Shown here piece by piece: positions 11,984 through 37,981 of a stretch of DNA of 64,000 nt (within the stretch, counting starts at the first letter, position 1; every line of letters starts with the position of its first letter). The translations under genes were made by a program, and so were the position numbers. The notes beneath the pieces are model-generated. The model was not told where the DNA came from and ran no database searches. It was given only the letters and a program-made list of their open reading frames with translations. Location: assembly GCA_934234055.1 (NCBI GenBank), contig CAKQGY010000004.1, forward strand, positions 44,631 through 108,630, read 5' to 3'. Source of the stretch: an uncultured Alphaproteobacteria bacterium (GTDB taxonomy: Bacteria; Pseudomonadota; Alphaproteobacteria; CAAHEQ01; UBA3637).

Positions 11984-12015
11984 TTTTTCGGACAATTCTC
12001 TAATTCTCCTGTTTT

Positions 12016-12039: not shown

Positions 12040-12123
12040 GTGTGTTCCTTATACTTTTGCTTGACAAGCCTACAATCGTATGATAAAACATACAATCATA
12101 TATCATTTTATAGGAGGATTCTC

Positions 12124-12942: not shown

Positions 12943-12948
12943 TCTTTA

Positions 12949-16871: not shown

Positions 16872-16874
16872 ACC

Positions 16875-17872: not shown

Positions 17873-17914
17873 AGGAAAATAATCCTTGACATTTGCTCCA
17901 AAATGTGATATAGT
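17873..17914 (+). promoter_or_regulatory. consensus extended -10 sigma70 promoter, copy A (tail-fibre locus)
   Basis: AGGAAAATAATCC-TTGACA (17886-17891), 17 nt ending in TGA, then TATAGT (17909-17914). 47 of 54 nt identical to copy B at 28989. Confidence 0.7.
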
Positions 17915-17973
17915 GTTTTTTGGTTAAAAGGCACCCGTGTATTTGTTGCGCGCGGTGTCTTTTGCTATGTGTG

Positions 17974-18001
17974 CCTTGACCGCCCGGTCGAGGTTTTTTT
18001 T
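17974..18001 (+). terminator. intrinsic terminator inside the leader of the tail-fibre operon
   Basis: CCTTGACC-gccc-GGTCGAGG (one G-U pair) followed by T8. Lies between the promoter and the RBS/GTG at 18026. Confidence 0.65.
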
Positions 18002-18025
18002 AATCCCAAAACAAAGGAAATTATC

Positions 18026-19051
18026 GTGTCTCAACACATTTCTATCAAAAGCATTCCGCCGCGAATTCGCTATGTTTCGGACGGTGTGCGCACCACTTAT
18101 ACTTTCCCGTTCGCGATTTTCAAGGCATCAGATCTGACCTTGTATCTGGACAGCACGGTGCAGCAGGCCGGCTCATTTTCGGTTGCCGGTGTCGGGGACA
18201 GCGACGGCGGGCAGATTACCCTGAGCCAACCGCCGGCTGCGGGTGTCATTATCACTTTGGCGCGCGAATTGACCATAGAACGCACCACCGACTTTCAAGA
18301 GGGGGGTGTGCTGCGTGCCGAGGCTTTGAATCACGAATTGGATTATCAAATTGCGTGTCAACAACAGATTGCCGACAGTCTTAATCGGTCTATGGTTTTA
18401 CCGCCTTATGTGACGGATACAGGCGTGAACCTGACGCTTCCGATACCCAGTGCCGGTAAAGCGATTGTCTGGAACAGCAACGGGACGAATCTGGAAAATT
18501 CAGCAGTTGCAGTTAACGCCCTAGAGTCCACTATTAAGGGGTATCGCGATGAAGCCAAAGGGGCAGCTGCCGTTTCGGCTGCCAAGGCCGACGAAGCCGC
18601 GCAGCAAGCCCAATCCGCCACAGCCTCTGCCGCTACGGCCACAGCCCAAGCGCAACTGGCCACCGGTAAAGCCACCGAAGCTGCCGGAAAGGCTGCCGAA
18701 GCCGCAGCAGTTTTATCTGTCAAAGCTGATGTCGGCCTGGGGAACTTGTCCCAATCCGGTAAAGCCGTTATTGCCGCACTGGGTGTGCCGGATTACAGTG
18801 CTGCCGAATCGCGCACCAAAGGCACCACTTACACCGCCGATCGTCCCGGTGTGCTCAAAGTCTATGTCTCGGGTGTTGGAGGCGAGGGCAAAACCGTCAT
18901 CAACGACATTGAATTTTTGAACAACGGCAACACGATGACGATGACATACCTGCTACCGGTTGCGACGGGCGATACTTATTCGTTTGTCGTGAACAGCGGT
19001 TATGGTTCTAATTTCAGTTTTATCCCGTATAAAGGAGTGTCCAATGATTAA
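18026..19051 (+). CDS. phage tail fibre protein
   Basis: N-terminus IRYVSDGVRTTYTFPFAIFKASDLTLYLD...TIERTTDFQEGGVLRAEALNHELD resembles podoviral fibre N-terminal domains. Ala/Gln-rich coiled coil in the middle, then a distinct C-terminal domain. GTG start after AAAGGA. The track start at 17969 lies inside the terminator. Confidence 0.65.
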   Translation: MSQHISIKSIPPRIRYVSDGVRTTYTFPFAIFKASDLTLYLDSTVQQAGSFSVAGVGDSDGGQITLSQPPAAGVIITLARELTIERTTDFQEGGVLRAEALNHELDYQIACQQQIADSLNRSMVLPPYVTDTGVNLTLPIPSAGKAIVWNSNGTNLENSAVAVNALESTIKGYRDEAKGAAAVSAAKADEAAQQAQSATASAATATAQAQLATGKATEAAGKAAEAAAVLSVKADVGLGNLSQSGKAVIAALGVPDYSAAESRTKGTTYTADRPGVLKVYVSGVGGEGKTVINDIEFLNNGNTMTMTYLLPVATGDTYSFVVNSGYGSNFSFIPYKGVSND

Positions 19052-24311: not shown

Positions 24312-24369
24312 AGCATATTCCTTTCCACGATAAAAAGATAGCCCACTATACTCGATTTTTTCCCCGTTG

Positions 24370-25854
24370 TCAAGGCTTTTTTCGCATTATCCCCAAAAAA
24401 AGTAATATCCCCCCCATCAGAGCCAGCGGGATTCCCACACCGCCCCGGGCGTAAATCGTCCGCGCCAAGGGCATCGGCAAAGCGGTATCCAGCACACCCT
24501 CGCGTCCCAGTTCCAGCCGCCCCAGCGTCCGCCCATAGCCGTCAAAGACCGCGCTGATTCCGGTATTGGCCGCGCGTGCCAGGGGCAGACCTTCTTCCAC
24601 GGCGCGCATTTTCGCCATGCCCAGGTGCTGATAGGGCCCCGCGGACAGACCATACCACCCGTCATTCGTGATATTGATCAGCCAATCCGGCCGCCGCCCG
24701 CGTTCCACCACTTGCCCCGAAAAGATGACCTCATAGCACACCAAGGGCCCCAGTGCCGGCGTGCGTCTGGTGCGGATGGTGCGGACATGCGCTCCGGCTT
24801 CAAAGTCAAACGGCAGCGGCACGATTTTCGTCCGCCCCAGGATTCCCCGCATCGGCACATATTCGCCAAAGGGCACCAGGTGCGCTTTATCATAGGATGC
24901 CACAATATTCGCCAAATCATCCAGGATAAACAGGCTGTTTGCGATGGGAGTCTGCCGGTTGCCGGTTGCCCGCATGCCCCCCAGGATTAATGTTCCCCCC
25001 TGTCGCACCGCTTGCATCAGGCGCGCGCGCTCGGTCTCATCGGTATTTATGATAAAGGGCACAGCCGATTCAGGCCAGATCACATGCGTGATTGCGTCAT
25101 TCTTTTCGCGCGACAGGCGGATCAGTTTATCCACATTTGCATCGGCTTCTTGCGGATCCCATTTCAGGGTCTGCGGGATATTCGGTTGCACCAGGCGCAC
25201 CCTTACCCCCGCCGCTTGCGAATCGCTTGCCTGATACAGCCGCAACGCCCCCGCGCCATACAGGATTACCAAAGCCATCCCTGCCGCGATGACGGGTTTT
25301 TTATTCGGCCACAAAGCCGGACTTGCCCCCACTGTCAAAGTCATAAACGACAGGCCATAGACCCCCCAGACCGACGCGGATTGCAGGATCGGCAGGCTGT
25401 TTTCCCACACCGATCCCATCAGGTTCCACGGAAAGCCCGTCAGGATCCAACTGCGTCCCCATTCAAAGATAACCATGATCGCCGCCCACGCCAGCAATCG
25501 CTGTCCGCCCGCGCGTCCGAATCGGCACAGCACCGCCGGCACAGCCCAGAACAGACCGAACAAAGTCCCCATCCCCAGCCAGCACAGGGGAATCAGATAC
25601 GCGAAACTCCCCCCGTCAATCATCAAGGCATTTGTGATCCAGTTTGTTGAGCACACGCCCAGCCCCGCCGCGAACCAGAACGCCGTCCCGAACGCGGTTT
25701 TGCGGTTTTCCGCACGGTTGATTCCCCGAAACACAAGCGTCAAGGTGAACGGCAATATATATATAGCATAATATGGTGCAAAGGCCAGTGCCGTTATGCC
25801 GCCCGCGACGAACAAAGCGATTCGCTTGACAATCGGCTGTCCCGACAATTTCAT
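24370..25854 (-). CDS. lnt: apolipoprotein N-acyltransferase
   Basis: 494 aa. Multi-TM N-terminal half plus CN-hydrolase domain ([10 protein letters not shown]...WPES...VCYE). Confidence 0.85.
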
Positions 25855-25863
25855 TTCGGCCTC

Positions 25864-26499
25864 CTATTGACTAACCCAGATCACGCGTGCCATCCACATG
25901 ACTTCCGGTGTGTCCAGTGCGATATCATCGCATGCCGGGTTTAAGGATTTCAGGATCACCTGCCGTGCCGATCGATGTTCTAATTCTTTAACCATCACTT
26001 CCCCCTTTCGGGTTTTCAGGACGATTCGATCTCCTTTGCGCACTTCCGCATCCGGCGAGACGACCAATTTATCCCCGTCGCGATAGGCAGGCTCCATACT
26101 GTTGCCCGACACTTCCAGGGCATACACCCGTTGTCCCAGATCAAAGGGGAATTCAATACCGTCCCAATCTTCACTGCCCAGCGGATAGCCGTTTGCATCA
26201 AAGTATCCGGCGCGTCCCGCTTTGGCCAAGCCCAACAGGGGGATGACATGCGGTTTTGGGCGATAGGGCTCTCCTGCCAGTTCCATAAATTCAAAGATTG
26301 TCGTATTTGTTGCATTCAGGATTTTATTCATACTTTCCGTCGAGGGCCAGCGTTTTCGCCCGTCCGCGCCGATTCGTTTGGATTTATTAAAGCTGGTTGC
26401 GTCCAAGCCGGCCTTGACTGCCAGCCCCGACAAGGACAACCCCTTGCTTTCCGCCAGGTTTTCAATTCCTTTCCATATTTCCGCATATGTCAGTTGCAT
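25864..26499 (-). CDS. XRE-HTH / S24 peptidase repressor (phage CI-like, LexA-type self-cleaving)
   Basis: 211 aa. N-terminal HTH (GLSLSGLAVKAGLDATSFNKSKR) and C-terminal S24 domain with GNSMEP catalytic Ser motif and a downstream Lys. Confidence 0.8.
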   Translation of the reverse strand: MQLTYAEIWKGIENLAESKGLSLSGLAVKAGLDATSFNKSKRIGADGRKRWPSTESMNKILNATNTTIFEFMELAGEPYRPKPHVIPLLGLAKAGRAGYFDANGYPLGSEDWDGIEFPFDLGQRVYALEVSGNSMEPAYRDGDKLVVSPDAEVRKGDRIVLKTRKGEVMVKELEHRSARQVILKSLNPACDDIALDTPEVMWMARVIWVSQ

Positions 26500-26787
26500 A
26501 ATGCCACTCCTTTTGTTTTTACACAGACCCGTTTCATCACTTTTTTCTTTCGGTATATTCCTATCCTTCGGGGGTGATATCCGCTTTTTATCCTAATTCC
26601 TTTTTACCACACCCACCCGTTTTCGTCAACATATTTTTCACACTTTCCCCACTTTTTTACTCCTTTTCCCCTCTTTTTGGCAAATATCCCCCGCTTTTTC
26701 TAAAATCCTCTTTTCTTATTCTCCCCACTCTCGTCATTTTATTATTATTTAACCATTCCACCCATCCGCCAATCACCTCACCCACCT

Positions 26788-26838
26788 GTCATTGCGATCC
26801 CCCTTGCGGGGCGTGGCAATCCACCCGGCACGAATGCA
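26788..26838 (+). repeat. hairpin repeat family copy
   Basis: GTCATTGCGATCCCCCTTGCGGGGCGTGGCAATCCACCCGGCAC, preceded by about 280 nt of pyrimidine-rich sequence. Confidence 0.6.
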
Positions 26839-26920
26839 ATGTATAGAATCACCCATCCCAGAACAAAAAAACTTGCAAAAAATCCGCAAATTGTTTAAAC
26901 TCAACATATCGGAGGTATAA

Positions 26921-27208
26921 ATGGCCCATAAGGAAAAACAGCCGCCCAAAAGTGATGCTTTAAGTATCCTGTATTTATTGCTAGGGATTCCATATGCTTT
27001 TATAATTGTCATGACCGGAATGTCAAGAGCTAAAACCCTTGATGATATATTTGGTTTATTGACCTTTTTTACGCCGGCGGTTTGCTTATGCCTTTTTGCT
27101 TTTTTCTCCGAAAGGACTTATACGCTGATTAAAGCCCTGTCTGTTATTTTTCTTGTAGTCATAGTAATTGTCTCAGGTGCCCATTTGACTTATTTTATTA
27201 CACACTAA
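26921..27208 (+). CDS. small hypothetical membrane protein
   Basis: 95 aa, 3 predicted TM segments, GGAGG RBS. AT-rich compared with its neighbours. Confidence 0.55.
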   Translation: MAHKEKQPPKSDALSILYLLLGIPYAFIIVMTGMSRAKTLDDIFGLLTFFTPAVCLCLFAFFSERTYTLIKALSVIFLVVIVIVSGAHLTYFITH

Positions 27209-27223
27209 GCGCAACTGCAACTT

Positions 27224-27272
27224 GTCATTGCGAGCCGGCTTGCCGGCGTGGAAATCCATTCAACAAGAAGTC
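27224..27272 (+). repeat. hairpin repeat family copy
   Basis: GTCATTGCGAGCCGGCTTGCCGGCGTGGAAATCCATTCAACAAGAAGTC. Confidence 0.65.
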
Positions 27273-27276
27273 AACT

Positions 27277-27325
27277 GTCATTCTGAGTGGGGCTTGTCCC
27301 CCGAAGAATCCACTAAACATTATAT
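27277..27325 (+). repeat. hairpin repeat family copy (ATTCT/AGAAT variant)
   Basis: GTCATTCTGAGTGGGGCTTGTCCCCCGAAGAATCCACTAAACATTATATC. Confidence 0.65.
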
Positions 27326-27330
27326 CCTTA

Positions 27331-27385
27331 TGCCATTGCGAGGGGCGCAGTGTGCCCCGTGGCAATCCACTGAACACTTAAATCA
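27331..27385 (+). repeat. hairpin repeat family copy
   Basis: TGCCATTGCGAGGGGCGCAGTGTGCCCCGTGGCAATCCACTGAACACTTAAATC. Confidence 0.65.
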
Positions 27386-27423
27386 ATATATTCTTGCACA
27401 CATTTTCCCCCAAAAAAAGAGTA

Positions 27424-27990
27424 GGCCGGCACACTCCGCACCGTCCCCACACCTCACCACCGGCCGGCACATTCTGCGCCGCCCGGCACACCCCACGCCG
27501 TCTCCGCACCACACCACACCTCACCACCGCCCGCCACACCCTGCACCGCTCCCCGCACCGCACCCCACCACCGACCAGCACATTCTGCGCCGCCCGGCAC
27601 ACCCCACGCCGACCTCTGCGCGCCACCGCCCCGGCTGCTGTCTCTCCTCTTTTTTTAAATTACCTCCACCGGCCCTTCCGCTCTCATTCCTTATCCTCGG
27701 CTTCCATTTTTTGGGAGGAGGGCGCCTCTATCCCCCCCCTCACACTCCTTTCTTATCCCTCGTCTTCTCGTCCCCACTGTTCCTCTCTGGCCAGCACACC
27801 CCTATCCATCTCCCGCGCCACACTTCACCACCGCCCGCCACACCCTGCGCCGTCCCCACACCGCACCCCACCACCGACCGCCACACCCTGCGCCGCTCCC
27901 CACACCGCACCCCACCACTGGCCGGCACATTCCGCGCCGTCCCCGCTCCCTACTTCGCCACACCGACCGACACATCTGCGCCGACCTCTC
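27424..27990 (+). repeat. C-rich degenerate tandem repeat tract (two arrays separated by a CT-rich spacer)
   Basis: Units of roughly 45-55 nt of the type CACCACCGCCCGCCACACCCTGCGCCG(Y)CCCCACACCGCACCC. An exact 34-nt direct repeat occurs at 27467-27500 and 27578-27611. A near-identical ~56-nt block occurs at 27521-27576 and ~27824-27878. Confidence 0.75.
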
Positions 27991-28228
27991 ATCGCCTCCT
28001 CGGTCGCCCCTTTGATCCCCGGCCCCGTGGCGCGCCTTTCGCCGCCTGAAATGCGGCCTTTGCCGGCCTCTCCCGCCCCTTCGATCTCCCCACTCTTTTT
28101 AGTTGTCTCGCCTATACCATATCCTTTTTGTCCTGTCAATAGGTTTTTTTTCTTATTTTTAGTCTTGACAATTCATTTTTTTTGATTTACTTCTATTTTT
28201 GTGTTTAATTTTAACGAAAGGATAGATT

Positions 28229-28597
28229 ATGAGGAATAAATACCAAACACAAACAGATACTCGCAAAACCGTGCCTTTTGAGACGCCCGAGGACGCCTGG
28301 TTCTGGTTTTGCCTGTGCGAACAATTGGGTCAAACGCGGGCTCGCGGTGGCGAGTCGCGAATCGCTCGCCCGTGCGAGTCGTCGGACATTATTATTGCCG
28401 TCAAGCGGTTGATGAATCAGGGGCTCTTAAAGGCCGAGCACATTCGGATTTTAGAGCACTACGGCTTTGACCAAGCCCCGCCTCATCCGAACTTCGGAGC
28501 CACCGCCCGCGTGTGTCGTCTGTGGCGCGAAGCCATGAGTTTTTTAGAGATGATTCTGCGCCGCAAAGGAATCGTCGCGTGCCTGTTATGTATATGA
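28229..28597 (+). CDS. hypothetical small protein, candidate regulator of the phage-like element
   Basis: 122 aa, AAGGA RBS. C-terminal part (LLKAEHIRILEHYGF) loosely resembles a sigma region-4/HTH segment. No family recognised with confidence. Confidence 0.5.
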   Translation: MRNKYQTQTDTRKTVPFETPEDAWFWFCLCEQLGQTRARGGESRIARPCESSDIIIAVKRLMNQGLLKAEHIRILEHYGFDQAPPHPNFGATARVCRLWREAMSFLEMILRRKGIVACLLCI

Positions 28598-28610: not shown

Positions 28611-28985
28611 ATGAAAGATTTAATTGCCACCGGCTATCGTTATCCGTATGCGTATGTTGCCTTTGGCGGCCGCCGCACGAAATGGTGGATGCGTTTTTTG
28701 AAAAGCGGCTTTTATCATTGCGCTTTGGTCTTGGGCAACGGGCGCGAGTGGGTGCTGATAGATCCGTTGATTCACTTCACGGATTTGATTGTGTTAAAGA
28801 ACGCCCCCGTGTGTGCCACCTTGCGTGCCCGGGGCTATCGTCTGGTGCGCACCACGCCCAAAGTGCCGCCCTTGTGCCACACGCCGTTCCGACCGCTCAC
28901 CTGCGTTGAAATCGTCAAGCGTTTTTTGGGTATTAACGCCCCGAAAATCTGGACTCCTTATCAACTTTTTAGATTTTTAACCTAA
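28611..28985 (+). CDS. hypothetical protein
   Basis: 124-aa ORF directly upstream of promoter copy B. No family recognised. Confidence 0.5.
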   Translation: MKDLIATGYRYPYAYVAFGGRRTKWWMRFLKSGFYHCALVLGNGREWVLIDPLIHFTDLIVLKNAPVCATLRARGYRLVRTTPKVPPLCHTPFRPLTCVEIVKRFLGINAPKIWTPYQLFRFLT

Positions 28986-28988: not shown

Positions 28989-29030
28989 AGGAAAATAATC
29001 CTTGACATTCGCAAAAAAGTGTGATATAGT
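28989..29030 (+). promoter_or_regulatory. consensus extended -10 sigma70 promoter, copy B (portal operon)
   Basis: AGGAAAATAATCC-TTGACA (29002-29007), 17 nt ending in TGA, then TATAGT (29025-29030). 47 of 54 nt identical to copy A. Confidence 0.7.
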
Positions 29031-29037
29031 GATTTTT

Positions 29038-29073
29038 AGTTAGCGGCTGGGACTCTATCCGCTGACTTTTTTT
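29038..29073 (+). terminator. intrinsic terminator 1 in the portal-operon leader
   Basis: AGTTAGCGG, 12-nt loop, CCGCTGACT (9 bp, one G-U), running into T7. Confidence 0.6.
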
Positions 29074-29075
29074 AT

Positions 29076-29107
29076 CGGGTTAGCCCACCGGCCGACCCGT
29101 TTTTTTT
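29076..29107 (+). terminator. intrinsic terminator 2 in the portal-operon leader
   Basis: CGGGTTAGCC-cacc-GGCCGACCCG (10-position stem with one mismatch and one G-U) followed by T8. RBS AAGGAG and ATG at 29128 follow. Confidence 0.7.
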
Positions 29108-29127
29108 ATATCAGAAAAGGAGATTAT

Positions 29128-30594
29128 ATGACGGATATACAACATTTGTATCATCGTTTCCGACGTGCTCAGGCGATTCGTGCCGATTGGGAGCCCGTTT
29201 GGCAGTCGTGTTATGAATACGCCCTGCCGCATCGTGAAAGTATGTTCAACCCCACGCACACGCCGTTGGGTCATTTGTTTGACGGCACGGCGCCCGATGC
29301 CGTGGATCAGTTGGCCGCGCTTATGCTGTCCGAGCTCACGCCTCCCTGGCTGCGTTGGTTTCGCTTGACTGCCGGCACGGATTTGTCGGCCGATTCGGGC
29401 ACCCGCATTGCGCCGGATTTAGAGCACATTTCTCAGGTTGTTCAGACTCATTTTGACCGATCCAATTTCGCGTTAGAGGTGCACCAGTGTTATTTTGATC
29501 TGATTACAGCCGGCACGGCCTGCCTGTTGTTCGAGGAGGCTCCCGTCGGGTCATCTTCGGCGTTTCTGTTCACGGCGGTTCCGTTGTCTCAGGTTTATTT
29601 ATCCCAAGGTTCTTCCGGCCGCCTGGACACGACTTTCCGCCGGTGTTCACTGGATTTTGAGGCTTTTTGTGCCCGTTTTCCCGAGTTTCACTTGCCCGAT
29701 CGTCTTCCGCGCTCAGCCAACCCCGACGATGTCAAGCTGGACATTTTGGAGTCGGTCGCGCCGGCGCCGGGGGGTGGCTTTACCTACACGGCGTTTTTGA
29801 ATCCCGAGACTTTGCCGGATTTTCTGCCTCGCACGGATCTGTTGTTGCGCGAGTCGCATTATACGACATCGCCGTTCATTGCGTTTCGTTGGCTCAAAGC
29901 CCCGGGCGAGGTTTACGGTCGTTCGCCGGTGATGAAGGCACTGCCCGATATCAAGACCGCCAACAAAGTGGTTGAGTTGATTTTAAAGAACGCCTCTATT
30001 TCCGTCACGGGCATTTGGTTGGCCGAGGACGACGGCGTCTTGAATCCGGCGAACATACATTTGACTCCGGGCGCGATTATCCCCAAGGCCGTCGGTTCCA
30101 AGGGTCTCACGCCGCTGGAAGCCCCCGGCAAGTTTGATGTGTCCCAACTGGTGATAGAGGATTTGCGCAAGCGGATTCGCCACGCGCTATTGGGCGACAA
30201 ACTGGGCGAGGTCGCGACCCCCGCCATGACGGCGACCGAGGTCCTAGAGCGTTCTGACGAAATGATGCGCATATTGGGTGCGACATACGGCCGCCTGCAA
30301 ACCGAGCTGCTGACGCCGCTTTTGGCGCGTGCGGTTCAGATTTTGCGTCGTCGTGGTGAGATTCCCGAGGTGTATCTGGACGGCCGTCTGCTTGCCGTCG
30401 CGTATCAGTCTCCCCGCGCGGCCAAGCAAGGGCAGATTGACGCCAACAACGCGCTTTTGTGGCTGACGAATGTGGCCAAGCTCGGCGAGTCGGGCCTGTC
30501 GCAGATTGACATCGGCACATTTGTGCGGTGGCTGGGGGACAAGCTCGGCGTGCCTGATTCGGTTCTTTCCCCGCCGATGGGAGGGATTCAATGA
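29128..30594 (+). CDS. phage portal (head-tail connector) protein, podovirus type
   Basis: 488 aa, first gene of the operon. N-terminus LYHRFRRAQAIRADWEPVWQSCYEYALPHRE recalls T7-type connector proteins. Followed by scaffold-like and capsid genes. Confidence 0.6.
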   Translation: MTDIQHLYHRFRRAQAIRADWEPVWQSCYEYALPHRESMFNPTHTPLGHLFDGTAPDAVDQLAALMLSELTPPWLRWFRLTAGTDLSADSGTRIAPDLEHISQVVQTHFDRSNFALEVHQCYFDLITAGTACLLFEEAPVGSSSAFLFTAVPLSQVYLSQGSSGRLDTTFRRCSLDFEAFCARFPEFHLPDRLPRSANPDDVKLDILESVAPAPGGGFTYTAFLNPETLPDFLPRTDLLLRESHYTTSPFIAFRWLKAPGEVYGRSPVMKALPDIKTANKVVELILKNASISVTGIWLAEDDGVLNPANIHLTPGAIIPKAVGSKGLTPLEAPGKFDVSQLVIEDLRKRIRHALLGDKLGEVATPAMTATEVLERSDEMMRILGATYGRLQTELLTPLLARAVQILRRRGEIPEVYLDGRLLAVAYQSPRAAKQGQIDANNALLWLTNVAKLGESGLSQIDIGTFVRWLGDKLGVPDSVLSPPMGGIQ

Positions 30595-30797
30595 CCGCCG
30601 CCGCCTTTGCCCGCCTGTTTAACCGGCCCGAGGCCGCCGCGGTTTTATCCGCCCTCCGGCGCCTCACTCAGCAGCGTGTTTTGCCGCCCACCGCCTCCGA
30701 TCGCGAGGTTTGGTATCTGGAAGGCCAGCGCGCGCTTTTCGCAACCATTTTATCATTCATTCAACAAGGTCAACAACCCAAGGAGAAACAACCATGA
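30591..30797 (+). CDS. hypothetical phage protein
   Basis: 68 aa. ATGA overlap with the portal stop. Confidence 0.45.
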   Translation: MTAAAFARLFNRPEAAAVLSALRRLTQQRVLPPTASDREVWYLEGQRALFATILSFIQQGQQPKEKQP

Positions 30798-31489
30798 CCC
30801 AAACAAACCAACAACCGCAAACGCCGGCCGCCGTGCCGACATCTGACACACCCGTCCCGTCCAAGTTCCAAAATCCGGACGGCAGCCTCAATTCGGACGC
30901 GCTGTTAAAGTCCTATTTGGCGCTGGAAAAGAAGTTGGGCGATTCGGCCAAATCCCCGTCCGCTGCGGGATCGCGCCCGGACAAGCCGACCGATTACGAT
31001 ATCCGATTGTCCAGCGACCTGATGCATGTGGACGAATCGATCAACAAACGCCTGTTTGACCTTGGTTTCACCAACGCCCAGGCACAATTTGTCTATGACT
31101 TGGCGGCCGAGAAAGTCATTCCGCTGTTGCAAAATGTGATTCAGACATTCCAAACGGATCGTGCGTTATCGGATTTAGAGCAGTATTTCGGCGGAGCAGA
31201 TCGCTTCAACACGGTCGCGCGCCAGATTTCCGCCTGGGGAGAAAAGCACTTAAACCGCTCGGTTTTTGAAGCCCTTTCCGCCAGTAAGGACGGCATTCTC
31301 ACGCTTTACAAGATGATGACCGACGGGCGCGAGCCGGGCGTGCTGCCGCCCGCTGATTCGAGCGAACCGGCCGACACCGAAGAGTCTTTGAAACGCCTGA
31401 TGCAGGATCCCAAGTATTGGAAAAAGCAGGATCCCGATCTGGTGCGCCGCATAGAAAACGGGTTCAAGCGTCTCTATCCGGCTCAATAG
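30794..31489 (+). CDS. capsid scaffolding-like protein
   Basis: 231 aa from the ATG after AGGAGA. Gln/Pro-rich N-terminus, otherwise helical and charged. Position between portal and capsid as in T7 gp9. Confidence 0.45.
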   Translation: MTQTNQQPQTPAAVPTSDTPVPSKFQNPDGSLNSDALLKSYLALEKKLGDSAKSPSAAGSRPDKPTDYDIRLSSDLMHVDESINKRLFDLGFTNAQAQFVYDLAAEKVIPLLQNVIQTFQTDRALSDLEQYFGGADRFNTVARQISAWGEKHLNRSVFEALSASKDGILTLYKMMTDGREPGVLPPADSSEPADTEESLKRLMQDPKYWKKQDPDLVRRIENGFKRLYPAQ

Positions 31490-31639
31490 TTTCGGGCGGA
31501 TAACTCTTTCGAGCCCGCCTATGGGGCACCGTCCTCGTCGGGATTGTGCCTGTTTTGGGGATTCGTCCCCGCTTGTCGTGCGGCGACCTTTGGCCATAAC
31601 CGCCGACATTTTTTTTAACATTATGAAAGGAAAAAACTT

Positions 31640-32485
31640 ATGACAACAACAACGATTGATGCGTCATTCATCAAACATTTTGAAGCCGACGTGCACACCG
31701 CCTATCAGCAACAAGGCTCCAAACTCAAAAACACGGTCCGGTCCAAGACCAATGTCGCCGGTGCTTCCACGACTTTCCAAGTCATCGGCACCATGGCCGC
31801 CACGACCAAAACGCGTAATGCCCAGATTACTTCATCGGCTGTCACACACGCGCCGGTTGAATGCACACTGACGGATTATTATGCCGGCGAATGGGTGGAT
31901 CAGCTGGACGAATTAAAAGTCGGCCATGACGAGCGCAAAGCCCTGGCTTCGGCGGGTGCGTATGCCCTGGGGCGCAAGACGGACGACCTGATTATTGCCG
32001 CGCTCAACACGGCGACGCAAACGGCCGGCACCAAGGCCGAAGCGCTTACCAAAGACCGGATCTTACAGGCTTTCACGATCTTAAACGAAAACGATGTGCC
32101 AGACGACGGCGAACGGTATGCGCTGGTCGGACCGGATCAATGGAATCAACTGCTGTCTATTGAGGAGTTCTCGTCCGCCAACTATGTGGGCGATGCGTAT
32201 CCGATGCTGACCGGTTCCGAAAGTCGCAAGTGGATGGGGATTGTCTGGATTATGCACAATGCTTTGCCCAAGACAACCACAACCCACACTTGCTTTATTT
32301 ACCACAAATCCGCCGTCGGCCATGCTTCGGGTCAGGATATCCAAACCGATATCACCTGGCACGGCGACTATGCGGCTCACTTTGTCAATAATATGATGAG
32401 CCAAGGTGCCTGCCTCATAGATCCCAAGGGCGTCGTTAAAATGGAGTGCCTGGACACCCCGCCGACGACAACCGGCAACGGCTGA
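31640..32485 (+). CDS. major capsid protein
   Basis: 281 aa. N-terminus IDASFIKHFEADVHTAYQQQGSKLKNTVRSKTNVAGASTTFQVIG resembles P22-coat/HK97-fold podoviral capsids as I recall them. A strong terminator lies directly downstream. Confidence 0.6.
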   Translation: MTTTTIDASFIKHFEADVHTAYQQQGSKLKNTVRSKTNVAGASTTFQVIGTMAATTKTRNAQITSSAVTHAPVECTLTDYYAGEWVDQLDELKVGHDERKALASAGAYALGRKTDDLIIAALNTATQTAGTKAEALTKDRILQAFTILNENDVPDDGERYALVGPDQWNQLLSIEEFSSANYVGDAYPMLTGSESRKWMGIVWIMHNALPKTTTTHTCFIYHKSAVGHASGQDIQTDITWHGDYAAHFVNNMMSQGACLIDPKGVVKMECLDTPPTTTGNG

Positions 32486-32506
32486 TAGCAACCATGCAAC
32501 CACGGG

Positions 32507-32540
32507 GGAGGGGAGGGTTATCCTCTCCTCCTTTTTTTTT
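32507..32540 (+). terminator. intrinsic terminator directly after the capsid gene
   Basis: GGAGGGGAGG-gttat-CCTCTCCTCC followed by T9, 22 nt after the stop. Confidence 0.7.
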
Positions 32541-32557
32541 AACAGGAGTTTTTTGAT

Positions 32558-33127
32558 ATGACTTTTTCCGCAACAGATATTTGCTCGCATGCGCTGGTAA
32601 AATTGGGGGCCGGCACGATTTCGTCGTTTTCCGAGAACACGACCGGAGCCCGCATTGCCGAGCAACTTTACACCCCCACCACCGACGCGCTTTTGGCGTC
32701 TTATCCGTGGCGTTTTGCCTTGGCGCAAAGTGTGCTTGCGCGCCTGGCCGATACGCCGGCGTCCGATTATCGGTATGCGTATGCTCTGCCGGCGGATTGC
32801 CTGCGTGTGTTATCGGCCGGCACCGGCACGCACAGCCGCGGGCTCAACTACCGCTTGACCGGCCAGCAATTACACACTGACGCCGAGCAGGTCTTGCTGA
32901 CTTATATTTCCCGTCCGGCCGAGCGCCAATTCCCGGCCTTTTTCACCCAAGCCCTGACCGCCCAGCTGGCCGCCGAGTTTTGCCTGCCGCTGACCGAAAG
33001 CACGACCCGAACGGATTATTTGCGCAAGATTGCCACCGAGACGATTCAGCAAGCCCGCCTTGCCGACAGCCAGCAATCCGTTCCTTCGTCGTTTCAGGAT
33101 TTTTCATTGATTGAGGTGCGCCAATGA
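32558..33127 (+). CDS. tail tubular protein A / adaptor-like
   Basis: 189 aa. ICSHALVKLGAGTISSFSENTTGARIAEQLY...ASYPWRFA pattern. Size and position match T7 gp11-type proteins. Confidence 0.5.
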   Translation: MTFSATDICSHALVKLGAGTISSFSENTTGARIAEQLYTPTTDALLASYPWRFALAQSVLARLADTPASDYRYAYALPADCLRVLSAGTGTHSRGLNYRLTGQQLHTDAEQVLLTYISRPAERQFPAFFTQALTAQLAAEFCLPLTESTTRTDYLRKIATETIQQARLADSQQSVPSSFQDFSLIEVRQ

Positions 33128-35043
33128 CGAACCTGTTCACGACCAAGACAAATTTTTCCGCCGGAGCGCTTTCGCCGGATCTGCTGGGTCGCGTAGACCT
33201 CAAATCGTATGACAACGGCGCGCTGGTGCTTGAAAATGTGTTTATTCAACCAACTGGCGGGGTCTATCGGCGTTTCGGCACGCGCTACCTGGCGGATTTT
33301 GCGACTTCCGGCCGCCTGATTGCCTATACCAAAAGCGCGTCTGAATCCTATCTCATCGTGCTTCAAGATCAATCCGCCCGCATTTACCGCGACGGCGTAT
33401 TGCAAACCACGCTGGAAACCCCGTGGAGCGCGTCCCAAATAGCGTCGGTTTGTTGGTGCTCGGGGGGCGATGCGCTTTATTTCACGCACCCCGATGTCGC
33501 CCCGCAAAGGCTCACCGGCTCGGGCAACAGCTGGATCTTGTCCGCCTTTACTTTTTTGACCGAGGATCAGTGCCTGCGCCAGCCCTATCATCGATTTTCG
33601 GATGATTCCACGACTTTGTCCGCGTCGGCCGTCACGGGCAGTATTACGCTGACAGCCTCATCCGATGTGTTTTTGAATCGCCATATCGGCACGCCGTTCA
33701 AGGTTGCCGCGGGCTATGTCCAAATCACGGCGGTTGAATCGCCCCGTTCGGCCACCGCCACCGTGCTGAAAAAGCTGGTCGAGTCCGCCGGCGATACCGA
33801 CAGTCTTGCTCCGACGCGCAGTTGGGGCGAGCCGGCATTTTCCGCCGCATACGGTTGGCCGCGCACGGTTGCGTTTTATCAGTCGCGCCTGGTTTTCGGC
33901 GGTAGCAAAAGTCTCCCCAACCACCTGTGGTTCAGCCAATCCGGCGACCTCACGAACTTTGAGCTCGGCGACGGCTATGATTCCGAGGGGATTGAGTTTT
34001 CGCTGCTCTCTGATCAAGACAACACGATCTGTGCGTTATTTGCCGGCCGTCATTTACAGGTGTTCACCACGAATGCCGAGTGGATGGTTTCCGGCGATCC
34101 GCTGACGCCCACGAATATCCAGCTCAAACGCCAGACTCAGGTCGGTTCTCCCGCGGATCGTTTTGTGCCCCCCATCGGCATAGACGGCGCCACGATTTTC
34201 CCGGCTGCCAACGGGCGCGAGGTGCGCGAGTTCCTTTTTGCGGATATTGAGCAAGCCTACCAGGCCACCGACTTGTCATTATTGTCGTCGCACCTGATTG
34301 CCACGCCGGTGGATCAGGCGTATGACAAACATCATCGCCAAGCCTACCTTGTTATGGCCGACGGACGCCTGTGTGTGCTGACCAGTTTCCGAGCCGAGGA
34401 CATCCAAAGCTGGACCGACCAGACCACAGCCGGTGCGTTTTTATCCGTCGCCGTTGCGGGGGCTAAAACCTACCTGCTGGTGCGGCGCGGTGATCGGTAT
34501 TATTTAGAGGAGTTCACGCCGGATCTTCATACAGACTGCGGCTTTTTGCTGACGGCCGAAACCCCGACCACGACCTTTACGGGCCTGGCACCCTTAAACG
34601 GCCAAACGGTCAAGGTTCTTGCCGACGGCACGCCGATGCCCGACATGGTTGTCGCAAACGGACAAATCATACTTCCGTATGCGGCACGACGGGTTGAGGT
34701 GGGTCTTCCGTTCACACACGACATTACGCCCCTGCCGCCCGCCGTCGGAGCCAGCAACGGCGCCGCTCCCGTCTCGTCTGCGCGCTTGGTCAAAGCGGTG
34801 TTTCGCCTGATAGACACTTGTTCGTTTCAGGTCGACACCGGCACCGGTTTTCATCAAGAATTGGTGCCGACCTTGTCGGATTATCGGCTGGATACGCAAT
34901 TGCCCGCTCAAACGGCGGACATAGCCATACGATCGTTGGGGTGGCGAACGACACCCACGGCACCGTTATGGCACATTCGCGGGGATTTACCCCAATCATT
35001 CAAACTCGTCAGTGCCACCACTGACATACAAATCGGAGGATAA
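33124..35043 (+). CDS. tail tubular protein B / nozzle-like
   Basis: 639 aa. N-terminus NFSAGALSPDLLGRVDLKSYDNGALVLENVFIQPTGGVYRRFG. Position after the adaptor-like gene. ATGA coupling. Confidence 0.5.
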   Translation: MTNLFTTKTNFSAGALSPDLLGRVDLKSYDNGALVLENVFIQPTGGVYRRFGTRYLADFATSGRLIAYTKSASESYLIVLQDQSARIYRDGVLQTTLETPWSASQIASVCWCSGGDALYFTHPDVAPQRLTGSGNSWILSAFTFLTEDQCLRQPYHRFSDDSTTLSASAVTGSITLTASSDVFLNRHIGTPFKVAAGYVQITAVESPRSATATVLKKLVESAGDTDSLAPTRSWGEPAFSAAYGWPRTVAFYQSRLVFGGSKSLPNHLWFSQSGDLTNFELGDGYDSEGIEFSLLSDQDNTICALFAGRHLQVFTTNAEWMVSGDPLTPTNIQLKRQTQVGSPADRFVPPIGIDGATIFPAANGREVREFLFADIEQAYQATDLSLLSSHLIATPVDQAYDKHHRQAYLVMADGRLCVLTSFRAEDIQSWTDQTTAGAFLSVAVAGAKTYLLVRRGDRYYLEEFTPDLHTDCGFLLTAETPTTTFTGLAPLNGQTVKVLADGTPMPDMVVANGQIILPYAARRVEVGLPFTHDITPLPPAVGASNGAAPVSSARLVKAVFRLIDTCSFQVDTGTGFHQELVPTLSDYRLDTQLPAQTADIAIRSLGWRTTPTAPLWHIRGDLPQSFKLVSATTDIQIGG

Positions 35044-35044
35044 T

Positions 35045-35521
35045 ATGGAAGCTGCCCCAATCATCGCCGTTGCAGCAACGGCAACCGCTGCTTATTACAG
35101 CAAGAAGAATATGGATACCCAACGCAAGGAAGTCAAGGCCGCCCGTGCCGCCAATGCGCGCCAGTATGATCTGGACGCGGCTCAGGCCCGCCTGGCTCTT
35201 GAAGAGGAACAGCGCAAGAATCGCAATCTGCTGCGCCAACAACAATCCGCCTATCGGGCGCGATTGGGGGCGGGGGGAATGAGTGCGACTTCCGGCACCG
35301 GCCAAGCGGTTTTGGATTCGCTCCAAGCCGAGCACGATACCGAGGACAAGTATCTTGTCAATCAGGCCAACATCTCGCTGGAAGCGCTGCTCAACAGTGT
35401 GAATGCGCGCAACACGCAAAACCTGCTGTCGTTGTCGGCGTTGAATAATCGAACGAACGCCAACACCGCCTCGGCCATCAGCCGTATTTCCACATCGGCC
35501 GGCCGTTCGGTCTTAAAGTAA
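35045..35521 (+). CDS. internal virion / membrane-anchored coiled-coil protein
   Basis: 158 aa from the ATG after GGAGGA. N-terminal TM segment followed by a Gln/Arg-rich coiled coil. Confidence 0.4.
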   Translation: MEAAPIIAVAATATAAYYSKKNMDTQRKEVKAARAANARQYDLDAAQARLALEEEQRKNRNLLRQQQSAYRARLGAGGMSATSGTGQAVLDSLQAEHDTEDKYLVNQANISLEALLNSVNARNTQNLLSLSALNNRTNANTASAISRISTSAGRSVLK

Positions 35522-35534
35522 AGGAGAGCCCGCT

Positions 35535-35855
35535 ATGCCGGATCAGGAAGATACTTTTTCGGATTTGCGTGCCCCTTTAACCGAGGCTTTGCATCAGGCT
35601 TTGACTTCCTATCTGGCGTTTCGGGCAACCCCTGCGCCGCTGGATGATGCCAAAGCCTTTACCGCGCACCACAACGCGTGCAAGTCTGCTTTATTGCATA
35701 TGGCACTTTTGCTTAAACTGTCGTTGGCGTTGGATCGCCCGCGACAGGAAACAACGATGACTGATTGGCTGGATTTGGCCCGTCAGGCTCTTGAAAACGA
35801 GGATACAGATGACACAAACATCACATCGCCCGACACGCCGCTCGTCTTTGAGTGA
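35535..35855 (+). CDS. hypothetical protein (possible small terminase subunit)
   Basis: 106 aa, AGGAGA RBS. Its end overlaps the terminase large-subunit start. Assignment is by position only. Confidence 0.35.
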   Translation: MPDQEDTFSDLRAPLTEALHQALTSYLAFRATPAPLDDAKAFTAHHNACKSALLHMALLLKLSLALDRPRQETTMTDWLDLARQALENEDTDDTNITSPDTPLVFE

Positions 35856-37254
35856 GTTTGTCTGGATTTGGGATCGGACTCAGGGCTTGTCCATTCCCAA
35901 ACACCACCGCAAGATGATACGCTTTTTATCATTTTTGCAAGCCCCCGATTCGCCACGCAACGGGCTTTTAATGGCCTTTCGCAATTCCGGAAAATCGACA
36001 CTGGTGGGGTTATTTTGCGCGTGGCTTTTAACGCGCAACGCCAACACCCGTATTTTAATTTTATCGGCCGATTATGCGTTGGCCAAGAAAATGGTTCATC
36101 ACATTAAACAGGTGATAGAACACCACCCCCTGTGTGCGGGTCTCAAACCCCCGACACTGGAAGAGTGGGCTTCTGACCGTTTTACGGTGTGCCGCTCCAA
36201 ACACTTGCGCGATCCGTCTGTGTTGGCTCATGGCCTGATGGGGAATATAACGGGTTGCCGCGCCGATGTCATCATTTGCGATGATGTCGAGGTTCCCAAA
36301 ACCTGCGCCACCACGGCGCGCCGGGCGGATTTGCGGCAAAAATTGGGCGAGCTGGATTATATCCTGACCCCGGGCGGCATCTTTTTGTATGTCGGCACCC
36401 CGCATGCCTCGGATACGATTTACAATACCGAGGCCGGCGGATTTTTGGCCGATTGGCCGGTGCTGCGTGTGCCGCTGCTGACGGCCGACGGCACTTCGGC
36501 GTGGCCCGAACGGTTCAGTTTGGCGCGCATACAAAACCTGCGCCGCCGATCGGGCGCCACCCGATTTCGCAGCCAAATGCTGCTGGAACCAACGGCATGG
36601 ACCGCCTGTCGCCTGGATCCCGCCCGCCTGCATATCTATGACGGCGAGTTGAATTATCGCGAAGCCAACGGCCAAGGCATTTTAACCTTAAACGGCCGGC
36701 GATTGGTGAACGGGGCGTGTTGGTGGGATCCGGCGTTTGGGGCTCCCACCGGGGATCGCAGCGTCGTCGCCTGCGTCTTTTTTGACGAAGCCGGCAATGC
36801 CTATATCCACCGAGTGCAGTATTTAACCGTCCCGCCCGCGGCCGAGGCCACCGCCAGCCAATGTGCCCAGGTCGCGGGTCTGGTGGCGGAATGTTATATG
36901 CCCGCAGTGCATCTGGAAAGCAACGGCATCGGCAAGTTTTTGCCCGCCCTGTTGCGCCGGGAATTGACCCGCCGGCGGCTGCCCTGCACCGTGTTGGAAG
37001 AAACCAGCAGCCGCAGCAAAACCGAGCGTATTTTATCCGCCTGGGAGGCGCCGCTGATGAACGGGTCGCTGTTTATTCATCGCTCGATTCGGGAAACGCC
37101 GCTGTTGCGGGAAATGCAAGATTGGCGCCCGTTCGGCGACCGGGTCCACGATGACGGCCTGGACGCGGTGGCGGGTGCTTTGTTATCAACACCGGTGCGA
37201 CTGGGGCGTTTTCCGAACAGCACCCCGCAGGCACCGTTTTTATGGAGGATTTAA
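35809..37254 (+). CDS. terminase large subunit
   Basis: About 481 aa. Walker A FRNSGKST, Walker B DVIICDDVE, C-terminal nuclease-like half. ATG after GAGGA; the track start at 35791 is TTG. Confidence 0.75.
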   Translation: MTQTSHRPTRRSSLSEFVWIWDRTQGLSIPKHHRKMIRFLSFLQAPDSPRNGLLMAFRNSGKSTLVGLFCAWLLTRNANTRILILSADYALAKKMVHHIKQVIEHHPLCAGLKPPTLEEWASDRFTVCRSKHLRDPSVLAHGLMGNITGCRADVIICDDVEVPKTCATTARRADLRQKLGELDYILTPGGIFLYVGTPHASDTIYNTEAGGFLADWPVLRVPLLTADGTSAWPERFSLARIQNLRRRSGATRFRSQMLLEPTAWTACRLDPARLHIYDGELNYREANGQGILTLNGRRLVNGACWWDPAFGAPTGDRSVVACVFFDEAGNAYIHRVQYLTVPPAAEATASQCAQVAGLVAECYMPAVHLESNGIGKFLPALLRRELTRRRLPCTVLEETSSRSKTERILSAWEAPLMNGSLFIHRSIRETPLLREMQDWRPFGDRVHDDGLDAVAGALLSTPVRLGRFPNSTPQAPFLWRI

Positions 37255-37255
37255 G

Positions 37256-37666
37256 ATGGATACGGAAACAGATATTTTGGCGCGAACCCTGTATGGTGAA
37301 GCGCGCGGCGAGGGTCTGAAAGGGATAGAAGCCGTCGCCGCCGTTATTTTGAATCGGGTGCGGTATGCGGCCGCGGGCGGACCGCGCTGGTGGGGGCGCA
37401 CGGTGCGTGAAGTGTGCCTGAAACCTGCACAATTTTCGTGCTGGAACGCTGCGGATCCCAACCGGGTAAAATTGACGGGGGATTTGGCGGATGATCCGGT
37501 TTTTGCGATTTGTCGGCGGGTGGCGGTGCGCGCGATAAAAGGCATATTGCCGGATCCGACGCACGGCGCGACTCACTATCATGCGTTGTCGGTCAATCCG
37601 CGGTGGGCATCGGCTCTGATCCCGACGGCGCAAATCGGAAACCACTTGTTTTACACGTGTTTATAG
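37256..37666 (+). CDS. cell-wall hydrolase, SleB/CwlJ (Hydrolase_2) type endolysin
   Basis: LARTLYGEARGEGLKGIEAVAAVILNRV...QFSCWN...THYH motifs. GGAGGA RBS right after the terminase stop. Confidence 0.8.
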   Translation: MDTETDILARTLYGEARGEGLKGIEAVAAVILNRVRYAAAGGPRWWGRTVREVCLKPAQFSCWNAADPNRVKLTGDLADDPVFAICRRVAVRAIKGILPDPTHGATHYHALSVNPRWASALIPTAQIGNHLFYTCL

Positions 37667-37675
37667 GAGGAAAAT

Positions 37676-37981
37676 ATGGCAACACTGACCATAGAAATCG
37701 GTAAATTGATGGCGCAGGTGGAGACCCTGCAAAAGCAGTTGACCGAAATTAAAAAAGAAATCGGGCAGACAAAAAATCAGGTCGCCGATGTGCATAACGA
37801 ACTGTTGAATTTTATGACAACCGTTCAAACGAAAACCGCTTGCCAAGGTCTGCACGATAAGTTGGCGGCGGCGTATGTGCCTCGGGCCGAGATTGCGCCG
37901 TTAAAAACCGTGGCGGGGATGGTGGCACTGACCACCGTGACCGCGATCGGGGCGGCGTTTTTTAACCTCATCTTGAAATGA
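37676..37981 (+). CDS. coiled-coil protein with C-terminal TM segment (holin/spanin-like)
   Basis: 101 aa, AGGAGG RBS. C-terminus VAGMVALTTVTAIGAAFFNLILK. Confidence 0.45.
   Translation: MATLTIEIGKLMAQVETLQKQLTEIKKEIGQTKNQVADVHNELLNFMTTVQTKTACQGLHDKLAAAYVPRAEIAPLKTVAGMVALTTVTAIGAAFFNLILK

Follow-up and report, generated by a model that had tools for sequence, protein, structure and literature searches.

Introduction

In several phages and phage-derived elements, an intrinsic terminator stands ahead of a group of genes and is bypassed by an RNA polymerase that carries a dedicated factor. In lambda, the terminator tR' lies near +194 of the late transcript started at PR' and is read through by Q. 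In Pseudomonas aeruginosa, the AlpR-AlpA-alpBCDE system uses a LexA-like S24 repressor to control AlpA, which loads at the promoter and bypasses an intrinsic terminator before the lysis genes. A terminator may also be found among structural genes, as in T7, which uses its own RNA polymerase and has an only partly efficient terminator, Tphi, after gene 10. The present study concerns a promoter-terminator cassette found twice in a 64,000-nucleotide (nt) stretch of DNA from an uncultured Alphaproteobacteria bacterium (assembly GCA_934234055.1, contig CAKQGY010000004.1, positions 44,631 to 108,630 of the forward strand; hereafter the window), once ahead of the portal gene and once ahead of the tail fibre gene of a T7-like particle element.

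The closest described cases are two domesticated phage elements of alphaproteobacteria. In the Bartonella gene transfer agent (BaGTA), a TTGACA-N17-TATCAT promoter (PbgtA-K) is followed by an attenuating leader and the factor, BrrG, is Q21-like (bioRxiv 10.1101/2024.11.20.624540). In the gene transfer agent of Caulobacter crescentus (CcGTA), the regulators are GafY and GafZ, the latter reported to have a sigma-like helix-turn-helix (HTH) domain (PMC11150451). Here, we report the anatomy, conservation and synteny of the cassette in the window and in related genomes, and we discuss which kind of regulation it may serve. We argue that the particle genes are probably switched on by an antiterminator encoded in the element, for which an early open reading frame (ORF) of 122 amino acids (aa) is the better of two candidates.

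A strong promoter followed by early terminators at two loci

Locus A opens the fibre gene and locus B opens the portal gene (Table 1; all coordinates are window positions). An initial annotation of the window had proposed at both loci the order stop codon, promoter, terminator or terminators, ribosome-binding site (RBS), and direct reading bears this out. The cassette follows the stop codon of a glycosyltransferase-like ORF (17840) at locus A and, at locus B, lies just 3' of the stop codon of an ORF of 124 aa (28985). Each promoter is adjoined by an upstream element, AGGAAAATAATCC, with a GGA-N6-TCC palindrome. A 20-nt stretch around the -35 box, GGAAAATAATCCTTGACATT, is identical at the two loci, where shuffled sequences give an expectation of 0 matches. 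Both promoters score 11/12 and carry the TG of an extended -10; only one further site of this kind occurs in 16 kb. This third site (24345-24373, minus strand) drives a short ORF starting with MKVRCSLK, which corresponds to ribosomal protein L36 (rpmJ). By this measure, the late promoters would match a ribosomal-protein promoter in quality. In CcGTA, a consensus -35 box abolished the need for an activator (PMC11150451), which supports reading the promoters described here as constitutive. Thus, the annotated picture of a strong, constitutive-looking promoter with an early terminator ahead of structural genes agrees with the sequence. At locus B, transcription probably starts around 29037-29038.

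Terminator-like sites were defined as hairpins of -8 kcal/mol or lower with at least five T directly after. The plus strand of the window contains 30 such sites, which corresponds to about 0.04 expected per 90-nt leader; three are seen in the two leaders. None of 200 shuffles folded as well as any leader hairpin, and these hairpins are 3.6-5.4 standard deviations better than dinucleotide shuffles. A looser terminator scan was not above chance (26 sites found vs. 22.8 expected) and reported, among the leader sites, only hairpin 2 of locus A. Rfam 15 gave nothing at either locus at gathering thresholds, and the best sub-threshold match in a permissive search, preQ1-II, is at chance level (26 bits for a threshold of 47).

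The number of hairpins differs in part from what had been annotated. At locus A, the single hairpin that had been described as a terminator (17974-18001) is real and has its T8 tract, but a first hairpin at 17925-17964, which is the stronger of the two, had been overlooked. It corresponds to a GGCACyGG-UGUAU-CCrGUGyy hairpin followed by a U-run in the fibre leaders of relatives. At locus B, two canonical terminators had been described; both hairpin/T-tract structures are present, but only the second corresponds to the terminator kept in relatives. Judged by their common sequence and layout, the two sites are copies of one regulatory cassette, which would gate the structural genes of a T7-like particle element fixed in the chromosome.

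Table 1. Positions of the two late cassettes, the early genes and associated features in the window. Energies and z-scores are from folding.
Feature	Position	Strand	Remarks
Upstream element A, AGGAAAATAATCC	17873..17885	+	Locus A; identical to the locus B copy
Late promoter A, TTGACA + 17 nt with TG + TATAGT	17886..17914	+	-35 17886-17891; TG 17906-17907; -10 17909-17914
Conserved initially transcribed box A, GGTTAAAAGGCACCCGTGTATTT	17922..17944	+	
Hairpin 1, locus A	17925..17964	+	Followed by UUUUGC; counterpart of locus B hairpin 1; -22.4 kcal/mol, z -5.4
Hairpin 2 + T8, locus A, putative leader terminator	17974..18001	+	Hairpin 17974-17993, T8 17994-18001; -14.4 kcal/mol, z -4.3
T7-like tail fibre gene	18026..19051	+	GTG start at 18026, RBS 18014-18019; PF03906 N-terminal domain, PHROG tail matches
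S24 (LexA/CI-type) repressor-like gene	25864..26499	-	Divergent from the early operon; PF00717
Early promoter region	28163..28205	+	Upstream of the 122-aa ORF; TTGACA at 28165, degenerate SOS-type box TTACTTCTATTTTTGTGTT
122-aa ORF	28229..28597	+	Best candidate trans-acting factor
124-aa ORF	28611..28985	+	Directly upstream of the locus B cassette; synteny conserved
Upstream element B, AGGAAAATAATCC (GGA-N6-TCC palindrome)	28989..29001	+	Locus B; adjoins the -35 box
Late promoter B, TTGACA + 17 nt with TG + TATAGT	29002..29030	+	-35 29002-29007; TG 29022-29023; -10 TATAGT 29025-29030 (direct reading)
Conserved initially transcribed box B, AGTTAGCGGCTGGGACTCTATCC	29038..29060	+	
Hairpin 1 + T7, locus B	29039..29073	+	Hairpin 29039-29066, T7 29067-29073; terminator-like or pause hairpin, box motif inside loop; -15.6 kcal/mol, z -4.7
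Hairpin 2 + T8, locus B, putative conserved leader terminator	29076..29107	+	Hairpin 29076-29099, T8 29100-29107; -14.2 kcal/mol, z -3.6
RBS and start codon of the portal gene	29116..29130	+	AAAGGAG 29116-29122, ATG 29128
Putative internal intrinsic terminator, T9	32504..32540	+	Capsid/tail-tube gene junction; GGGGGAGGGGAGGG...CCTCTCCTCC, -19.8 kcal/mol

Conservation of the cassette in relatives

In the twenty closest genome loci, the region from the 124-aa ORF to the portal gene can be aligned by eye. These loci share the upstream element and the promoter, then a box of the form nAGTTAnn...GAAsTGTATCy, a GC-rich hairpin followed by a T-run, and finally the RBS. At farther loci, the cassette precedes a small pre-portal gene or the terminase genes. 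A MAFFT consensus of 65 cassettes reads AAaAGGAAAATAATCCTTGACA-N17-TATAaT-...TCAGTTAAacGCCAGAAGTGTATCC, where TCAGTTAAacGCCAGAAGTGTATCC is the consensus of the box; GGAAAA and TCC of the upstream element are 70-99% conserved in this set. In several lineages, the upstream element is a perfect palindrome, GGAAAATTTTCC. The box takes up about the first 25 transcribed bases, and its sTsTAT core is found 21-22 nt after the -10 box in 37 of 40 leaders.

The leader terminator is conserved in another manner. A hairpin and T-run as defined above occur in 38 of 42 related leaders, vs. 0.8 ± 0.9 in dinucleotide shuffles of the same leaders, and a wider genome set gives 51 of 63 leaders with a hairpin and at least four T. 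The stems are unrelated in sequence between clades while a hairpin and U-run are retained at that position, which indicates that the structure of the leader terminator, not its sequence, is kept by selection.

This conservation bears on the simplest explanation of the hairpins, namely that they are ordinary terminators or insulators of the upstream genes (the glycosyltransferase operon at locus A, the 124-aa ORF at locus B) with a promoter in front of them by chance. Indeed, at neither locus does the stretch from the upstream stop codon to the promoter contain a terminator of its own, and the hairpins would stop read-in. However, the promoter-then-terminator order is found in the same 38 of 42 leaders, and at loci A and B no room is left for a further promoter between the last T-run and the RBS. 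Moreover, at two fibre loci of relatives (L207 and L208) the upstream neighbour is encoded on the other strand, and the cassette still has both hairpins. The initial annotation was therefore right in that the hairpins are not simply terminators of the upstream genes, and we consider this explanation hardly credible. That they would also stop polymerases arriving from the early operon or the glycosyltransferase genes is likely a side benefit and not the reason for the order.

The cassette is not restricted to the main cluster of particle genes: the six solitary fibre genes of relatives that were fetched all carry it. Because these genes are unlinked, a trans-acting regulator would be needed.

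One may also ask whether the product of the cassette is the leader itself. Terminated leader RNAs of about 36-80 nt would then be functional small RNAs made from a strong promoter, and expression of the operon a by-product of read-through. Many small RNAs are indeed laid out in this way, with a conserved 5' sequence ahead of a terminator hairpin and its U-tail, and weak sub-threshold Rfam matches to small RNAs reflect this shape. Yet the conserved part keeps a set distance from the promoter and extends into the upstream DNA, the two copies within one genome differ over most of the would-be seed, and the cassette always lies directly 5' of particle genes that have a good RBS. A small RNA function is thus very improbable in our view.

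The transcribed box and the structure of the leader RNA

In most portal leaders, the 5' segment of the box (GTTAnnnn) pairs with a stretch located beyond the T-run of the terminator. These duplexes have a mean energy of -11.1 kcal/mol within a species vs. -8.2 ± 0.47 kcal/mol when partners are taken from different species, and none of 5000 permutations reached the observed value. Compensatory changes are found in the arms (CAGGC/GCCTG, CAACCA/TGGTTG, CTAGAA/TTCTAG, CCCGGC/GCCGGG, AGGGAAA/TTTCCCT, CACCCG/CGGGTG). In the two leaders of the window and in the fibre leaders of relatives, the pairing partner is located before the terminator, which gives a local hairpin 1 with the conserved core in its loop, followed by a U-run. 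Hence, hairpin 1 of locus B is, as far as the alignments tell, a lineage-specific local closure of the conserved 5' segment; it may act as a second terminator, as a pause hairpin or as a 5' stabiliser. A helix with its 3' arm made after the U-run cannot prevent termination.

Small hairpins around the conserved core are present in fibre leaders, at locus B of the window and in many high-GC lineages. In many lineages, the arms around the sTsTAT/AATTG core are variable (GGCACTGG/CCAGTGCC, GGGCG/CGCCC, CGGCGG/CCGCCG, GCGG/CCGC). A conserved loop with lineage-variable pairing arms is also what is seen in boxB or ops, so that the box could be a nut-, put- or ops-like signal. Carried by the nascent RNA or by the non-template strand, such a signal would recruit host Nus factors or modify the polymerase, with or without a small element protein. 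In line with this, low-GC boxes contain UUAACA (29040-29046 in the window, box GTTAACA), which we take to be the hexamer also present in the boxA core of rrn and lambda nut sites, a likeness of 6 nt only. Furthermore, GafZ acts with NusA, NusE and NusG (PMC11150451). On the other hand, UUAACA is absent from high-GC lineages, no Rfam family was matched, and a factor-independent put-like element would defeat its own leader terminator. A single conserved boxB-like hairpin was tried and rejected: the stem register differs between lineages and many portal leaders have 3 bp or fewer, so that no such hairpin can be defined. Antitermination based on RNA or on host factors appears to us distinctly unlikely.

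Another candidate identity for the box, a T7-like phage polymerase promoter, was dropped since no polymerase-sized gene was seen in the element, either in the window or at the mapped loci.

Early genes and the candidate factor

Upstream of the structural genes, the gene order is nearly everywhere the same: S24 repressor-like gene on the minus strand, 122-aa ORF, 124-aa ORF, structural genes. The 122-aa ORF was detected in 72 of 80 genome loci, the others being without upstream sequence, and in 80 of 80 viral contigs, and is flanked there by the S24 gene and the 124-aa ORF. Clustering at 50% identity divides its family into about 600 clusters. An exact GTTC-N7-GTTC, presumably the alphaproteobacterial SOS box, is found 39-50 nt before the start of the 122-aa ORF in 38 of 72 relatives. 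The SOS-type box of the window (28187-28205) is degenerate, CTTC-N7-GTGT, and SOS control may therefore be weakened in this genome.

The initial annotation had named the products of the 122-aa and 124-aa ORFs as candidate factors. The predicted structure of the 122-aa protein is all-helical with four helices (predicted local distance difference test, pLDDT, 83.5). The protein has no match in 50,697 phage records and its model has none among viral structures. Neither ORF, nor any of 70 relatives of the 122-aa ORF, matches the Phage_AlpA or MerR-like HTH families of Pfam. The 124-aa protein is modelled with an alpha/beta fold (pLDDT 88) that has no structural match in the PDB, and the ORF has no Pfam, PHROG or NCBIfam match. 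Its only phage homologues, of about 30% identity, are found in 49 Vibrio podophage records, for example at 1964-2437 of Vibrio phage 1.138.O (L210). They are always located between the large terminase and portal genes, which suggests a morphogenetic rather than a regulatory role for the 124-aa protein. Of the two candidates, the 122-aa protein hence appears the better one, as judged from sequences and models, although its likeness to a Q21 fold is not significant and no sequence relation to Q21 was found; the 124-aa protein has no fold match that would sustain the proposal.

Antitermination or control of initiation

Factor-dependent processive antitermination, by a factor encoded in the element, seems to us the best explanation of these features, and we hold it with moderate confidence. 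Transcription would start at the near-consensus sigma-70 promoter that has the AGGAAAAnnnTCC element just upstream. One or two intrinsic terminators would halt unmodified RNA polymerase after about 35-80 nt, keeping the particle genes silent. Upon induction, release of the divergent S24 repressor or of the SOS-type box would free the early operon, which consists of the ORFs of 122 and 124 aa. One of its products, most probably the 122-aa protein, would then load on the polymerase at the promoter or at the box and render it terminator-resistant. The same factor would activate the unlinked fibre locus and carry the polymerase past a terminator located after the capsid gene. In this scheme, termination at the leader hairpins, the need of a factor for read-through and the identity of the factor protein are what we infer. 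Roughly two thirds of the weight that we give to antitermination falls on the 122-aa protein as the factor.

The processive antiterminator switch that the initial annotation had suggested thus gains from the architecture, promoter and early terminator being conserved at both kinds of locus, and lacks an identified antiterminator. Further along the cluster, a terminator is found at the capsid/tube position in 28 of 43 relatives. Either it sets the stoichiometry of the products, like Tphi in T7, or the polymerase that reaches it is already terminator-resistant, both being compatible with the data; the conservation of this terminator fits a processive mechanism. In a more tentative extension, which we rather doubt, the 122-aa protein would be the founding member of a new family of processive antiterminators that load close to the promoter, and the AGGAAAAnnnTCC-promoter-box cassette would be its loading site. 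Protein and cassette together would control a T7-like particle element that is inherited vertically and had not been described before, as a candidate podovirus-type gene transfer agent of Rhodospirillales-like and gut Alphaproteobacteria, including unlinked satellite loci such as the fibre gene.

Several observations weigh against antitermination. The leader terminators are predicted from sequence and folding. Hairpin 1 has no local equivalent in most portal leaders of relatives. There is no clear conserved -10-like pause element: by hand count, the AAsTsT located around +12 to +18 agrees with NANNNT in only some 27 of 42 leaders, high-GC lineages fitting it in a shifted register. As for the 122-aa protein, the top PDB matches of its model are repeatedly Q21, but with E-values of at least 2 and template modelling scores of 0.3-0.4 (Foldseek), which is not significant. 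Its alignment with QuuD of Escherichia coli, first verified as a Q21 relative, gave an hhalign probability of 0.3%. Searches of Pfam, PHROG and NCBIfam gave no match to it, Pfam was likewise empty for 70 members of its family, and profile searches of PDB sequences gave chance matches only.

The most serious competitor would act at initiation. A protein, be it the S24 repressor, host LexA or an activator, would bind the AGGAAAAnnnTCC palindrome, the transcribed box or both. The terminators would be partial attenuators that damp leak and read-in, the 5' hairpins would stabilise the mRNA, and no dedicated antiterminator would exist. The palindrome is indeed centred about 6 nt upstream of the -35 box, a typical position for a class II activator or a repressor, which makes direct control of initiation possible. 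The 5' segment always has a pairing partner, on one side of the terminator or the other, which is what a helix that stabilises the 5' end would show.

The box itself leads to the same question when lineages with a single promoter are considered. Some viral-contig lineages have no late cassette and their late genes lie directly 3' of the 124-aa ORF. In ten such lineages (L215, L216, L217, L219, L227, L228, L244, L266, L275 and L286), the single promoter, upstream of the 122-aa ORF, has a TAGGAA...TC element, a full GAAC-N7-GAAC box and then a AACTGTATC-like sequence. The box of the late cassette, which reads GTTA-N7-GAAC-TGTATC in many lineages, resembles GAAC-N7-GAAC-AACTGTATC at this SOS-controlled promoter, the likeness being to the right half of the operator. 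The transcribed box may thus descend from an operator, which keeps direct repression alive. A hairpin with a T-run is absent from the leader in seven of the ten lineages, and two of the other three have about -11 kcal/mol and only T4. Conversely, where a separate late promoter is present, the first SOS half-site is lost and the terminator is present. This distribution fits a replacement of the operator, as the off-switch of the late genes, by a terminator together with an early gene product.

Control at initiation nevertheless has difficulties. With a near-consensus -35 box, spacer and extended -10, an activator seems unnecessary, and tandem GC-rich stems with T7-T8 at both loci of the window would be costly for mere damping. 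The first SOS half-site is not retained in the late cassette, and the conserved early 122-aa protein would have no role. We therefore consider control at initiation without an antiterminator unlikely, and retain factor-dependent antitermination as the favoured explanation.

The T7-like particle element and its surroundings

The cluster opened by locus B (29128-37981) encodes the portal protein (PF12236, 1e-120), scaffold, capsid, tube proteins, a gp14-like protein, a terminase-like protein and a cell-wall hydrolase. The fibre gene is located 10 kb from locus B, and the host genes Lon and Lnt lie between loci A and B. In the window and in the mapped loci (L001-L080 and L212-L291), the cluster spans about 9-12 kb and has no polymerase, replication or integrase genes. 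The portal is encoded, within the same gene order, in more than 529 species-level genomes, with 54-73% identity in the best 80. The carriers are mostly Rhodospirillales-like and uncultured gut or rumen Alphaproteobacteria. The portals of the nearest named phages are only about 35% identical, and an unannotated 5-kb record from a fecal sample reaches 55%. With this gene content and distribution, the element looks like a domesticated particle that is passed on vertically, and thus like a candidate podovirus-type gene transfer agent. No description of it was found in the literature searched.

The cluster varies in detail between lineages. In relatives, a gene of 68-70 aa of the Phage_Bbp19 family (PF25181) is found between portal and scaffold (5038-5244 in L201, 5040-5252 in L202), and other lineages (L021-L066) have a protein of 60-80 aa ending in ...KKLLGE between leader and portal. 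In the window, about 1.6 kb between the S24 gene and the 122-aa ORF (approximately 26530-28100) are not found in relatives. This region includes, at 27400-28000, a C-rich degenerate tandem repeat with a unit of about 44 nt and a GC skew of -0.40. The ORFs called in it (90, 95 and 275/263 aa) have no family matches and look non-coding.

The solitary fibre gene adjoins glycosyltransferase or surface-polysaccharide genes in the window (10772-17840, beside 18026) and in five of six relatives (L204, L205, L206, L208 and L209). A small ORF of about 100 aa usually lies 3' of it, and the wider genomic contexts vary.

A metagenome scan with GGAAAANNNTCCTTGACA gave mostly chance matches. One recurrent promoter class has GGAAAAnnnTCCTTGACA, a near-palindromic spacer GCGTGACGCTGC, a -10 box TAGGGT and a box CTCCACAATTGCGC resembling the Magnetospirillum-type box (L084, L086, L090, L093, L096, L100, L121, L124, L135, L147, L161, L167, L174, L185, L192 and L195). 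Among the genes downstream of these promoters are those for an HK97-type portal, a terminase-small-like HTH protein, an Xre/ParS antitoxin and small membrane proteins. Spacer and box are common to the class, but the contigs have no homologues of the 122-aa or 124-aa ORFs, and the class could not be linked to the present element.

Comparison with known systems

If the favoured explanation is correct, a compact and portable switch, made up of about 130 bp of DNA and one small protein, silences a lethal particle-and-lysis programme and co-ordinates unlinked loci. It would be the third, sequence-unrelated case of antitermination in domesticated phage elements of alphaproteobacteria, and would back the proposal that antitermination is a general control of such elements (bioRxiv 10.1101/2024.11.20.624540). 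The cassette also provides a precise sequence tag for finding all genes of the regulon in carrier genomes. Since cultured carriers exist (Magnetospirillum, Caenispirillum, Terasakiella and Haematospirillum), the hypothesis is directly testable.

The late control of lambdoid phages (lambda, 82 and 21) has the same main features, with a strong constitutive promoter and an early intrinsic terminator before head, tail and lysis genes, regulator genes that immediately precede the late promoter, induction by way of an S24-type repressor or an SOS cascade, and a read-through that must persist over later terminators. However, no protein of the Q-lambda, Q21 or Q82 families was recognised in the element by family and hhalign searches, and a clear -10-like pause element is not seen. 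The terminators are closer to the promoter than in lambda, at about +30 to +70, and the conserved DNA element is upstream of the -35 box, whereas that of lambda lies between -35 and -10. Finally, the genes controlled here are those of a T7-like particle, with a second, unlinked, co-regulated locus.

BaGTA is likewise a domesticated element of an alphaproteobacterial host, in which a constitutive TTGACA-N17-TATnnT promoter precedes a leader that attenuates expression, and the factor, here a candidate only, is small, helical and encoded at another place of the element. In contrast to the 122-aa protein, for which the relation is not significant, BrrG is clearly Q21-like. The BaGTA leader is about 860 nt long with a weak terminator (-6 kcal/mol), whereas the leaders described here have about 90-105 nt and strong canonical terminators. 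Also, the NANNNT element required in BaGTA 5 bp after the -10 box is not found at that place and is not conserved here.

With CcGTA and its regulators GafY and GafZ, the element would share a two-tier regulation in which an antiterminator passes terminators inside the particle cluster (PMC11150451). Accessory loci elsewhere share the regulators, and a repressor governs the regulator operon. Nevertheless, the CcGTA promoter has a degenerate -35 box and needs GafY and the integration host factor (IHF), its terminator comes after the first gene, with 150-bp GC-rich repeats, and the palindrome that serves as the GafZ site lies between -35 and -10.

The AlpR-AlpA system resembles the element by its S24 repressor, its small factor (a candidate here) and its terminator ahead of the target genes; it differs by the Phage_AlpA HTH family of its factor, which was not matched here, and by its targets, which are lysis and not particle genes. 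With lambda N/nut (boxA and boxB), HK022 put and RfaH/ops, the cassette has in common a short conserved signal early in the transcript, often placed in a small hairpin whose loop is conserved while its arms vary. An N-like, NusG-like or RfaH-like protein was not recognised in the element, the hairpin register is not conserved and Rfam gave no match, and put, which works without a factor, would defeat the leader terminator. As with Tphi, an intrinsic terminator directly follows the major capsid gene in a T7-like gene order; unlike T7, the element lacks a gene for a phage polymerase and relies on promoters of the host type. A conserved box in the initially transcribed region further sets the element apart from lambda Q, AlpA, BrrG and GafYZ. 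The logic of the proposed switch is already known from these four systems, whereas the candidate factor and its loading signal look new when compared by sequence.

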